A stretch of DNA of 64,000 nucleotides from an uncultured Hyphomicrobiales bacterium (GCA_964454975.1 CAYVVD010000001.1:131658-195657), one strand, 5' to 3'. Counted from the first letter of the stretch, positions 26,416-42,623 are shown. Notes: generated from the sequence alone by a model not told the origin. Program-made: numbers and translations.

Positions 26416-26501
26416 GGAGAGGTGCCGGAGTGGTTGAACGGGACGGTCTCGAAAACCGTTGTGCCTTTTGGGGTACCGTGGGTTCGAATCCCACCCTCTC
26501 C
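26416..26501 (+). tRNA. tRNA-Ser (anticodon CGA)
   Basis: Cloverleaf with a 7-bp acceptor stem (ggagagg/cctctcc), anticodon loop tCGAaa, long variable arm and a T-arm ggttcgaatcc. Confidence 0.85.
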
Positions 26502-26788
26502 GCAAATCCATACCCTTAATCTTTATTAATAAAACATTGTACAAATTTGTTTTCTATCTGAAATCCAATTCAAGTAACATTTAAGTAACGATTTTTTGTA
26601 CGAGAAATTATCTTTGAATAATTATTTCTATAGCTATTTTAGTCACAATGATTCTTGTAATGTACAAGTTTAAATCCTTTCACACCGACAACTGCTTTTT
26701 TTAGCCTGAATTTGTAATCCATTTCTGTATGTATTTTTCACTTTTTTTTGTATTATGATTTTTTTCAGGCACTTACCTGGGTTGCCCT

Positions 26789-29700
26789 TATGAAAATCTT
26801 AGAATTTACAAAAGAGCTTAAATTCGATTGTCTATTCGAAAGCAGTCTCAACTCTATCTTATTTTTAGATGCCTATGGAAAAATTGTTGATTTAAACTCC
26901 CGGGCTGAGAAATTGTTTGGAATTAGAAGAGAGATTTGCACCGGTAAATATTACCCAAATTACCTTCCGGGTGTTGAATCCAAAACAATAGATTTAATTA
27001 ATAAGGTTGCTGAAGATGGTCCGGAAATAATAGAACACTCCTCAGGTGAAAATGGCAGCACCAGGTTCTACAGGACTGAAATAAGACCCATGCTGGACAG
27101 CAATGCTGAGTTTATTGGCGCTATTTCAATCACAAAAGATGAAACTTCAAGGCTAAGAAAACAGGAAGAAATAAAGAAGCAGAAAGATTTTACAGAATCA
27201 TTATTCCAAAACATGATATCCGGTTTTGCACTCCATGAGATTATTTCGGATGAGGAGGGCAAGCCCGTTGACTATATCTTTCTTGATATTAACAAAGCCT
27301 TTGAAGATATTACAGGACTAATAAGCGCAGATATTAAAGGTAAAAGGGTTACTGATATACTTCCGGGAACCGAAAATGACCCTGCTGATTGGATCGGGCG
27401 GTATGGAAAAATTGCCATGACCGGAAGCCGGGAAACCTTCGAAAGCTATAGCGTTAATCTGAATAAATGGTTTGTGGTGAGTGCTTATTCTCCTGAAAAA
27501 GGAAAATTTGCCACTATATTTCAGGACATTACCAAAAGGGTTGAAGCTGAAAACAAATTAAAGCGAAACGAAGAAAAATTAAGGCTTATCATAGAAAACA
27601 GTACCAATTTGTTTTACTCTCATACGGCAGAGCATGAGTTAACCTATCTGAGTCCACAGTGTATTGATTATCTCGACTGTGAACCTGAAAAGGCGATGAA
27701 ACGCTGGACGGAGTTCGCCACAGACAACCCTGTAAACAAAATTGGATTTGAAAATACTGTCCGCGCAATTGAAACCGGCGAAAGGCAGACTCCTTATGAT
27801 CTGGAATTAAATAGTGCAAAAGGCAGGAAATTCTGGGTTGAAGTAAGGGAAACCCCGGTAGTTAAGCATAACAAGACTGTTGCTATAGTAGGCTCGCTTC
27901 ATGATATTACCGAGCGAAAGAGTGCGGAGACAGCTCTAAAGCAATCTGAAGCACTTTTTAGAAAAGTTCTTGAAAATATTAGGCTTATTGGGCTGATGTT
28001 GGATGAAAACGGCAAAATTACATTTTGCAACAAATTCCTGCTTAACTTAACAGGCCATAAGTATGATGAAGTTATTGGTGAGGACTTGTTCGAAAAATTT
28101 TTACCTTTAGAAATTCAACAAGAACACAAAGAAATGTTCTTCAGTACAATCAATGATATTGAGTTGCATGTAGTACACGAAAATGAAATAACTACAAAGG
28201 ATGGTGAAAGAAAGCTAATCAAATGGTTTAATACAGAAATGCGGGATGAATCAGGAAAACTCTTTGGCATTACAAGCATAGGAGAGGATGTTACTGCAAA
28301 GAGGAAAAGCCAGGAAAGATTCAGGCTAATTACCGAAATCACAACAGATATTACTTATGAATGGGATTTAAAAACTGACAACATTTCCTGGTTTGGCGAT
28401 ATTGACGCCGCACTTGGATATTCAAAAGGAACTATTAAGCCAAACCTGGAAAGTTGGTATGATCTTATCCATCCTGATGAATTAGAATACCTGAAAAATA
28501 TATTGAACGAATTTTACAACAAAAGCAATGAGCTTTTTATCGAGTACAGGATAAGGGATAGCAAAGGCAGATGGAGGCATTGGCAGGAAAAAGGCCTGGT
28601 AATCTTGGATGAAAACGGCAAACCCGGCAAAGTACTCGGTGCCTGCCTCGATATTACTGAAAAAAGGCGAGCTGAATTAGAGCTTATCAATAGAGAAAGG
28701 CAATTCCGCTTTCTTGCAGAAAACGCATTCTCGCTAATCAGATCTTATGAGTTAGATGAAATCCTGGGATTTGCAACTAATAAATTGTTTGAAATTACTA
28801 ACGGGGAAGCATCCGTATTTGTGTGTAAATTTAATGATAATACAAACAGATGGAGTATTTTCGATATTAAATTTTCAGACGATATGGATATCCAAAGCTC
28901 TCTAAAGTTTATTGAACATGTAAAATCTATTGAAATAAGAAATAATAGGTGGATTAATGAGAAATTACTAAGTGGAAGACTTGTAGAATTTGAAGAAGAT
29001 TTAACAAAGTTAATTAAGATTTTGAAACTCCCTGAAGAACTTATTTCATCTCTCAATAATACAGATATTGAAAAAATACTCTGTTTATCCTTTACTTATA
29101 ACAATAATTTCTATGGCACAGGCTGGCTTGTTTATTCGCAAAATGTAGAAAATATAAACAAACCGTTACTTGAAGCATTTTCAGTCCAGATTTCTACTGC
29201 TCTTAACAGGGTGCACAACGAAAAACAAAGACTCGATGCAGAGACTACATTCCGCAGCCTGTTTGAATCCAGCAATGACGCAATTTTAGTGATAGATGCC
29301 GAAACATCTCTAATAGTAGATGTTAATAAAGCTGCGCTCGATTTATACGGATTCAGGCGCTCTGAGCTATTAGGGCTTAATCCCGTGATGCTGTCAGCGG
29401 AACCGGGCTCTTTCTTTTCGATTTTGGACAGCACTGATAAAATCCCACTTAACAAAGTTCGGCAGAGTATTCATATAAAAAAGAATGGCTCGAGATTTCA
29501 CGTGGAATTCAGATTCTCATTATATGAATCTTCCGGAAAGAAATATCTTGCTGTACTTGTAAGGGATATAAGTGAAAGAGAAAGATATGAAAGAGAACTA
29601 AGCCAGGCTCATAAGCAAATACAGGCTTTTGCAGAACACCTCCAGAATGCAAGAGAAGAAGACCGTAAGCTGATTTCGCAGGATTTGCATGATGAGTTAG

Positions 29701-30272
29701 GAAGTTTTCTTGCCGGTATCAACTTCAGCCTTGGATATATAATTAAAGAGGCAAAGAAAAAGATTAAAAATAATAAAATCATTGAAGAGATTGATGCTAT
29801 GAGAAAATCTGTTAAAACAGGCATGATCAAGCTGAACGACATGATTGCAAAGATCAGGCCTAATGTTCTTGAGGGACTATCTATTTCAGAGGCTGTCGAA
29901 TGGCTGGTTGAAAATTTCCGAGAGAAATCCAATGTCTCTTGCAACCTGGTTACAAATGTGGATTATATTAATTTAAGTGATAAACAAATGACTGCAATTT
30001 TCAGGATACTGCAAGAGTCCCTTACAAATGTGATTAAACACGCTAAAGCAAAAAATGTGTTGGTAAAGCTTATTCAAAAGGATGATTTCCTTATTCTGAC
30101 TGTTAAGGATAACGGGCGTGGATTTGACTCGGACAATGCTCGCAAATTCTCTTTCGGCTTAGTCGGTATAAAAGAAAGAGCGGCTTCCTGTAACGGAAAC
30201 ATCAGTATTAAATCAAAACGCGGGAAGGGTACCGAAGTAACTCTCCAGGTACCGATTGAAGAAGGTGATTAA
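26789..30272 (+). CDS. multi-PAS sensor histidine kinase with a HisKA_3-type dimerisation domain (NarX/DegS-like core)
   Basis: At least four PAS/PAC-like modules and a GAF-like region. H-box DLHDELGSFLAG is followed by HATPase_c (N, G1 DNGRGF, G2 GLVGIKER). No TM helices are seen. The ORF-track start at 26748 is TTG; the first ATG is at 26789. Confidence 0.8.
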
Positions 30273-42404: not shown

Positions 42405-42432
42405 AAAAGAGCGTAGTTCACGCTCTTTTTTG
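42405..42432 (+). terminator. rho-independent terminator closing the six-gene signalling operon
   Basis: aagagcgt-agttc-acgctctt stem-loop followed by TTTTT. Confidence 0.55.
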
Positions 42433-42520
42433 TCAATAACGGTACATATTTATTGTTGACAATAATTAGCGAAGTTGTAAATGGATGATATTATTAGAGT
42501 TGTAAATAGAATCAGCACGG

Positions 42521-42553
42521 ATGCCGGGTAATTGATTCCTACCCTCTCCGCAA
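42521..42553 (+). repeat. degenerate direct repeat of the tRNA-Ser 3' end (candidate attR of an old tRNA-targeted island)
   Basis: A perfect 13-mer, accctctccgcaa, is shared with 26490-26504. The extended alignment is about 20/24 identical (gattcctaccctctccgcaatt vs gaatcccaccctctccgcaaat). Confidence 0.55.
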
Positions 42554-42623
42554 TTATTTTTAGCCACAAAAATTATCATTTAAAAATACGGGTAAAATTT
42601 ATTAATTTATCAAGCTTAAACAA

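Follow-up and report, generated by a model that had tools for sequence, protein, structure and literature searches.

A possible integration scar at a tRNA-Ser(CGA) gene around lineage-native two-component signalling genes in an uncultured bacterium

That genomic islands may be bounded by a tRNA gene is textbook knowledge. The Islander procedure recognizes such an island by an intact tRNA or transfer-messenger RNA (tmRNA) gene at its boundary and a matching end fragment on the same replicon, which must not lie in a protein domain or in another tRNA gene; a 3' fragment is expected downstream, in the same orientation and at a distance of 2 to 200 kb, and a tyrosine integrase gene is required (PMC4383910). 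Islands without an integrase escape this filter (PMC4383910). Here we describe a 64,000-nt stretch of DNA from an uncultured Hyphomicrobiales bacterium (GCA_964454975.1, CAYVVD010000001.1:131658-195657), referred to as the window, with positions counted from its first letter. In it, nine genes of two-component signalling lie between an intact tRNA-Ser(CGA) gene and a short, apparently displaced copy of the 3' end of that gene; we call the 16 kb between them the interval. We tentatively favor, with somewhat less than even confidence, the view that the two repeat copies are an integration scar around lineage-native genes, that is, an old or intra-lineage island that has become immobilized.

The locus has much in common with the tRNA gene islands found by Islander and TIGER (PMC4383910): an intact tRNA gene, a co-oriented, noncoding 3' fragment downstream of it, an interval of 16 kb, and a repeat core where the T stem meets the acceptor stem, a recognized crossover position. 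It differs from them in having no tyrosine integrase, no phage or conjugation genes, a typical composition, and a short repeat with a core of only 13 nt. Set against the Islander filters, the boundary tRNA, the end fragment, and the position, orientation, and distance of that fragment are all as expected, and the integrase is missing; atypical composition, as a sign of horizontal origin, was not found either. The locus also resembles degenerate, integrase-less islands, which keep their att-like repeats and their cargo but have no mobility genes. Such islands are usually recognized by foreign composition, patchy distribution, or integrase pseudogenes, but neither foreign composition nor integrase pseudogenes were seen here.

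ARAGORN and Rfam agree on exactly two tRNA genes in the window. The tRNA-Ser(CGA) gene at 26416 to 26503 (+ strand; 59.6 bits with the Rfam tRNA model) forms the left boundary of the interval and starts 48 nt past the stop codon of the RsgA gene. The tRNA-Leu(CAG) gene at 42624 to 42708 (+ strand) lies outside the interval, 68 nt past the repeat. The left, attL-like copy of the repeat is the 22-mer GAATCCCACCCTCTCCGCAAAT at 26486 to 26507, which takes in the last part of the T arm and the 3' strand of the acceptor stem and runs through the discriminator base for another 4 nt. The right, attR-like copy, the putative displaced 3' fragment of the tRNA, is GATTCCTACCCTCTCCGCAATT at 42534 to 42555. 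Within the two copies a 13-nt core, ACCCTCTCCGCAA, is identical at 26493 to 26505 and 42541 to 42553. Both copies are on the + strand, with a start-to-start spacing of 16,048 nt, and the right one is intergenic, placed in a 244-bp spacer between the end of the last open reading frame (ORF) at 42379 and the start of tRNA-Leu at 42624. An earlier, sequence-only reading of this stretch had set the tRNA gene at 26416 to 26501 and the repeat at 42521 to 42553; both exist, although their ends were a few bases off. The perfect 13-nt core and the position of the fragment, about 70 bp upstream of tRNA-Leu, were confirmed by our mismatch search and tRNA calls. The same reading had called the arrangement the footprint of integration into a tRNA 3' end, and the geometry is indeed that of the Islander signature, but the integrase that belongs to it is lacking.

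When both strands of the 64 kb were searched with up to 3 mismatches allowed, the left 22-mer had a single other match, the right copy, at 3 mismatches. A second match arose in none of 100 dinucleotide-preserving shuffles, whether the 22-mer or the core was used as the query, and no third copy of the core was found in the window even with 1 mismatch. The similarity can be extended without gaps to 35 nt at 74% identity (26471 to 26505 versus 42519 to 42553). It is unevenly spread, with 13/13 identities in the core and then a sharp drop to 13/22 deeper into the tRNA; the near-universal T-loop sequence GGTTCGAATCC reads GTAATTGATTCC in the right copy. A gapped local alignment of the repeat (about 37 nt) scored 54, compared with 26 ± 3.6 and a maximum of 40 for shuffles. 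In an Islander-style BLASTN search of both tRNAs against the window (word size 7), the right fragment was the best nonself hit (28.3 bits, E = 0.014); the next hit, which was unrelated, had an E value of 0.17. Among 25 control tRNAs, taken from the loci fetched for comparison, none gave a comparable nonself hit in its own locus, and no fragments of tRNA-Leu were found elsewhere in the window. We conclude that the repeat is real, though not overwhelming.

Two further similarities near the ends of the interval were considered and rejected. Just upstream of the right fragment, the 10-mer AGTTGTAAAT stands in two exact, direct copies at a spacing of 25 nt (42473 to 42482 and 42498 to 42507, + strand). 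As a pair of integrase arm sites it was discarded, because it is lacking at the left end of the interval and its number in the window is not clearly raised (13 matches at ≤1 mismatch against 8 expected). The likeness of CCGGGGTGTAATTGG, upstream of tRNA-Ser, to CCGGGTAATTG, just before the fragment, was not significant (score of 17 versus a shuffle mean of 16.6).

The nine ORFs between the repeats carry Pfam domains exclusively of two-component systems, namely, PAS, HisKA, HisKA_3, HATPase_c, REC, GerE, HDOD, and HD_5. From left to right, the first three encode a NarL-class multi-PAS HisKA_3-HATPase_c sensor kinase (1,174 amino acids [aa]; 26748 to 30272, + strand), a REC-PAS-HisKA-HATPase_c kinase (512 aa; 30269 to 31807, − strand), and a NarL/LuxR-type REC-GerE DNA-binding response regulator (211 aa; 31956 to 32591, − strand). 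The last of these is the sole transcription factor output of the cluster, and its NCBIfam matches to UvrY/GacA and NarL-type models were all under the cutoff. The remaining six genes, all on the + strand, form an operon (32836 to 42379) in which stop and start codons overlap or abut. It opens with a PAS-PAS-HisKA-HATPase_c kinase (749 aa; 32836 to 35085), followed by a stand-alone REC protein (144 aa; 35082 to 35516) and a hybrid kinase, PAS-HisKA-HATPase_c-REC (964 aa; 35519 to 38413). A REC-HATPase_c protein (535 aa; 38410 to 40017) then opens a clade-conserved module, which continues with a REC-HDOD response regulator (403 aa; 40017 to 41228) and ends with a REC-HD_5 (HD-GYP-like) response regulator in which the His-Asp pair is replaced (383 aa; 41228 to 42379). 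Starting 25 nt past the last gene is a palindromic hairpin, AAAAAGAGCG...CGCTCTTTTT (42404 to 42430), which the terminator scan reported on the − strand; on the + strand a T run comes next, and we read the hairpin and the T run as the intrinsic terminator of the operon. No recent duplication was found inside the interval, the best internal pair being at 35% identity, the level at which the kinase encoded at 30269 to 31807 matches the kinase core of the 35519-to-38413 protein over 381 aa.

All feasible tests for a foreign origin of these genes were negative. In 2-kb windows the GC content is 0.36 to 0.40 in the interval and 0.37 to 0.46 in the rest of the window, and the GC content at third codon positions (GC3) is 0.35 to 0.42 per interval gene, in the middle of the range of the flanks. 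Codon usage fractions of interval and flanks correlate with an r of 0.98, against 0.95 for the left versus the right flank; deviations in tetranucleotide usage correlate with an r of 0.92 to 0.93 between the interval and each flank and 0.94 between the flanks, and no 8-kb window inside the interval is atypical by tetranucleotides. A megablast search of the whole interval for plasmid and phage matches returned only the tRNA-Ser gene itself, in Paracoccus replicons, and nothing in phages. A reconstructed, attP-like 18-mer had one hit in viral contigs; it was rejected, as the contig is unrelated, GC rich, and without a tRNA, and the frequency is at the level of chance.

The best database hits of the interval REC-HDOD protein are 50 to 52% identical and have source names of Ignavibacteria or Bacteroidota metagenome-assembled genomes. 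The flanking RsgA protein has an affinity similar in kind and degree: its hits are named Kapabacteria or Kapaibacterium, and the best of them reaches 48%. Around the best REC-HDOD hits, the order REC-HATPase, REC-HDOD, REC-HD_5, in some cases with a small REC gene ahead of REC-HD_5, is shared with the window at three loci on Ignavibacteria-like contigs (L075/L076, L077/L078, and L162 to L164); in a variant of the module, at locus L081, a REC-HisKA kinase substitutes for REC-HATPase. Identities to the proteins encoded at 38410 to 42379 are 47 to 49% for REC-HATPase (L075, L077, and L162), 45 to 52% for REC-HDOD, and 48 to 55% for REC-HD_5 (55% in L162), and the hybrid kinase encoded at 35519 to 38413 is 32 to 33% identical to the hybrid or PAS kinases that adjoin the module in L075 and L077. 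For the left-flank genes, comparison with relatives gave 42 to 48% for RsgA, 35 to 40% for the helicase, 52 to 79% for RecJ, and 67 to 79% for YebC. Because the identities of the module overlap this range, the right-hand 4 kb of the interval, or about 7 kb counting the hybrid kinase, is a clade-typical operon with housekeeping-like divergence. The neighbors of the module in relatives are ordinary chromosomal genes (those for CysRS, ribosomal protein S20, AlaRS, LepA, and arginine decarboxylase). In these loci there is no tRNA-Ser near the module, and no integrase family among the precomputed Pfam labels of the neighbors.

A second REC-HDOD gene lies outside the interval at 45874 to 47115 (− strand), 3.5 kb past the putative right boundary, and its product is 50% identical to the interval copy. 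In a neighbor-joining tree of 35 family members, the two REC-HDOD genes of the window were sisters in 99 of 100 bootstraps, and the pair fell within the group of closest hits (P0122 to P0133), several of which are labeled Ignavibacteria or Bacteroidota. For an interval gene, the nearest relative is thus one that this genome carries in its own core flank. Such a placement agrees with an intra-lineage duplication or a same-lineage donor and not with import from elsewhere. The copy at 45874 to 47115 is the faster-evolving duplicate, since it is only 41 to 42% identical to the orthologues in relatives.

Relatives were sought with RsgA against one-genome-per-species contigs and a protein database and with REC-HDOD against JGI metagenomes. 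In the species-representative genomes, the JGI metagenomes, and the database of 5.8 billion proteins, no relative exceeded about 48% identity in RsgA or 79% in RecJ. The block RuvC-YebC-helicase-RecJ-RsgA is kept in loci L065, L068, L069, and L080 (without RuvC in L080). The position of tRNA-Ser is ancestral, because tRNA-Ser(CGA) is directly 3' of RsgA in L065/L066 and L070/L071 as well. What follows downstream is different in every relative: RelA in L068, a RelA/SpoT-family gene in L072 to L074, TamB in L080, and repeats with small ORFs in L065. In relatives as distant as these, such differences fit a hot spot but also ordinary loss of synteny. In L068, where RsgA and RelA are encoded side by side (10001 to 13128), the RelA protein is 58% identical to that of the window, and the RelA/SpoT-family gene product of L072 to L074 is 30% identical to it. 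In the window, the genes for RsgA (25361 to 26368) and RelA (56952 to 59009, on the opposite strand) are 30.5 kb apart, and because core genes for ThrRS and FlhA lie between them, general rearrangement has acted beside any insertion, in more than one event.

The closest relative found, L069, in which RecJ and YebC are 79% identical to those of the window, has tRNA-Ser sequence at either end of its contig. The start (1 to 50) holds 36 nt from the 3' end of a tRNA-Ser, which agree with the window at 35/36 positions with the trailing CAAA included and lie 12 nt from the RuvC stop codon; the end (7820 to 7856) holds the 5' 37 nt of a tRNA-Ser directly after RsgA. With direct-orientation tRNA-Ser sequence on both sides of its RuvC-RsgA block, more than one tRNA-Ser-like copy must be supposed in that organism or sample. 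Left of RuvC in the window no tRNA-Ser piece was found, bar a doubtful GGTTCACAAA at about 18733 to 18745. Contigs from 5 independent assemblies end within tRNA-Ser or at most about 640 nt past it, which suggests a repeat or a strain-variable region, and it is plausible that tRNA-Ser(CGA) is a recombination hot spot. In L065 the equivalent site is variable and rich in repeats: 3' of tRNA-Ser(CGA) it carries tandem arrays (11256 to 11970 and 12514 to 12642) with units of 46 to 48, 56, and 24 to 36 nt, together with a terminator and small ORFs, one of them with a weak HTH_Rpn_C hit. No second tRNA-Ser fragment was found downstream of tRNA-Ser in L065.

On the account that we tentatively favor, the right copy at 42534 to 42555 most likely represents the 3' end of tRNA-Ser(CGA) displaced from its gene, an attR-type scar. 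A tyrosine integrase would have recombined at the T stem/acceptor stem junction of tRNA-Ser(CGA), and its gene would later have been deleted; the tRNA-Ser site would, in this lineage, also be a hot spot for rearrangement and strain variation. The content of the interval is of the lineage's own type, a NarL-class kinase/regulator pair and a translationally coupled six-gene phosphorelay operon ending in the clade-conserved module. With no mobility function and native content, an island here would have to be immobilized and host-like in composition, with either an early acquisition or a very close relative as the donor. The distribution of identities in the repeat, complete in the core and poor further in, with the T loop not kept, favors an arm derived from attP over the uniform decay of a pseudogene. 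This pattern also speaks against the idea, to our minds improbable, that the right copy is the tail left by a second tRNA-Ser gene that decayed upstream of tRNA-Leu, where the two would have formed a small tRNA cluster, or that it arose when duplicated tRNA-Ser genes recombined, without any integration scar. That idea would suit the doubled tRNA-Ser sequence around the RuvC-RsgA block of L069 and a similarity traceable some 35 nt back into the T arm, but Rfam called no tRNA, not even a partial one, at the right fragment at an E value of ≤10, and a search of the window for remains of the 5' half of tRNA-Ser found none outside the gene itself.

Several observations weigh against an integration scar. 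The repeat is short, and the BLASTN E value of 0.014 for 64 kb becomes about 1 at a genome scale of 3 to 4 Mb, so that significance rests on a fragment that is at once nearby, 3' terminal, downstream, co-oriented, and intergenic. No integrase or excisionase, phage, or conjugation gene lies in the interval or beside either tRNA; an integrase remnant is excluded and not merely undetected, because the noncoding DNA of the interval consists of four spacers of ≤245 bp in which the longest stop-free frame is 72 aa. A gene pair for a multihaem Cytochrome_cB and a cytochrome b stands 5 to 7 kb from the module both in L162 (1094 to 3249, − strand) and in the window (48850 to 51137, − strand), where it is beyond the putative attR, with identities of 44% and 33%. 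This hints, suggestively only, that the neighborhood of the module predates any insertion; the link is weakened by a swapped gene order within the pair and by rhodanese genes that do not match. Lastly, if the remnant is unconstrained, a 13-nt core still free of mismatches would indicate a fairly recent event, yet the cargo seems to be long resident and the split of the paralogues ancient (50% aa identity). This tension could be reconciled by a close-relative or same-lineage donor, by constraint on the remnant, or by a chance match.

A chance match of 20 to 22 nt in an AT-rich spacer, the nine genes being an ordinary, vertically inherited cluster between two tRNAs, we regard as unlikely but by no means negligible. 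Apart from the E value at genome scale, loose gapped scoring of the 70 nt around the fragment gave 38 and 35 for unrelated places in the window and 36 for the end of tRNA-Ser, and the finding was selected from a scan of many windows. The absence of mobility genes, the native composition, the conservation of the module in the clade, and the sister paralogue outside the interval are all in keeping with coincidence. The shuffles and the control tRNAs, none of which gave a comparable match, argue the other way, as do the restrictions that the fragment obeys: it is 3' terminal, runs 3 to 4 nt past the discriminator, and is downstream, co-oriented, and intergenic, independent properties with which our rough estimate for a chance match falls to about 1e-4 to 1e-3 per window.

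The sequence-only reading, taken literally, holds that a foreign, 16-kb, signalling-only island from an unrelated donor entered tRNA-Ser and then lost its integrase. Its description of the content stands, since the nine ORFs have two-component domains only, and no integrase or excisionase survives in the ORFs or could have left a remnant in spacers so small. The tRNA gene with its 3' fragment and the variability of the region past tRNA-Ser among relatives would also agree with it. The claim of a horizontally acquired regulatory network is nevertheless unsupported, and we consider a foreign origin very improbable. There is no anomaly in GC, GC3, codon usage, or tetranucleotides, and the comparison of GC and tetranucleotides that the reading itself had proposed leaves the interval indistinguishable from its flanks. 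The REC-HDOD protein has Ignavibacteria-like best hits at about 50 to 52%, as the flanking RsgA has Kapabacteria hits at 48%; orthologues stand in the same order in core chromosomal contexts, a sister paralogue lies outside the interval, and no plasmid or phage record is similar apart from the tRNA. The reading had also named the occurrence of the same cluster in relatives without any repeat as an observation that would tell against it. This was found for the module of the last three genes, but only at long distance and for only part of the cluster. Signalling genes as the only cargo would be somewhat out of the ordinary, yet there is little evidence that they are cargo at all.

Turning to what the genes may do, the HD_5 motif of the REC-HD_5 protein reads LLSQIG (WEVEIAALLSQIG), with Ser-Gln (SQ) in the place of the catalytic His-Asp pair that forms the canonical HD motif of the HD-GYP family. 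The protein was aligned with four orthologues (L075, 11614 to 12750; L077, 11618 to 12754; L162, 11251 to 12396; L081, 12262 to 13407). Ser-Gln is kept in three of them, and the fourth, from L081, has LLSHIG (SH). No GYP motif was seen on reading the sequence of the protein encoded at 41228 to 42379, for which no formal search was made. Because the HD pair is SQ or SH in the protein and its four orthologues, phosphodiesterase activity appears unlikely. In the loci aligned, REC-HD_5 would thus be a conserved HD-GYP-like family, probably noncatalytic, that always stands beside a REC-HDOD gene. The REC-HDOD and REC-HD_5 architectures are those of RpfG-like REC-HD-GYP and REC-HDOD regulators and are here co-operonic with hybrid kinases; the protein differs from RpfG-like cyclic di-GMP (c-di-GMP) phosphodiesterases in the replacement of the HD pair by SQ or SH. 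With the NCBIfam model for NosR-family response regulators (NF053512), the score here is under the cutoff (240 versus 400 bits).

To judge by the domains, the multi-PAS kinases would respond to signals of a cytoplasmic or redox type, and the most likely partner of the HisKA_3 kinase is the NarL-type REC-GerE regulator, which would give the transcriptional output. The six-gene operon would act as a branched phosphorelay, in which the kinase, the REC protein, the hybrid kinase, and the REC-kinase lead to two receivers with HDOD and HD_5 outputs. As HD_5 is without the catalytic His-Asp, these outputs would probably be nonenzymatic, by binding or partner switching and not by c-di-GMP hydrolysis. 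In L077, unrelated multihaem cytochrome genes (1 to 3454) also adjoin the module, which, given the cytochrome pair near it in the window and in L162 as well, may have a functional link with respiratory electron transfer.

Abutting the 3' side of tRNA-Leu is a glycosyltransferase-2-like gene (42745 to 43725, − strand; 326 aa, or 316 aa from its likely start). Its GC3 of 0.50 is among the highest in the window, against a typical 0.35 to 0.41, and it has thousands of homologues at 63 to 72%, with source names including Bacteroidales, Delongbacteria, Fusobacteriaceae, and Chlorobi, whereas the best hits of other genes are at 45 to 52%. As a divergent integrase it was rejected, on its weak similarity to glycosyltransferase 2 and these many homologues. 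By composition and similarity, the case for horizontal transfer is stronger for this gene than for the interval itself.

The main value of the case is as a caution that a tRNA-end repeat alone is no proof of horizontal origin. The module of REC-HATPase, REC-HDOD, and degenerate REC-HD_5 may be of interest to research on c-di-GMP-related signalling in Ignavibacteriota. Should the interval prove to be a true island, it would offer a modest case of regulatory, rather than defense or metabolic, cargo in a poorly sampled phylum and would single out the tRNA-Ser(CGA) gene next to RsgA as a hot spot of integration there. It is conceivable, though we think it doubtful, that it is an integrase-less, fixed tRNA island whose whole cargo, a nine-gene phosphorelay network, was exchanged among closely related Ignavibacteria-like lineages. 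Were that so, whole signalling networks could travel as island cargo and then be domesticated, and the tRNA-Ser(CGA) gene beside RsgA would be a recurrent landing site.

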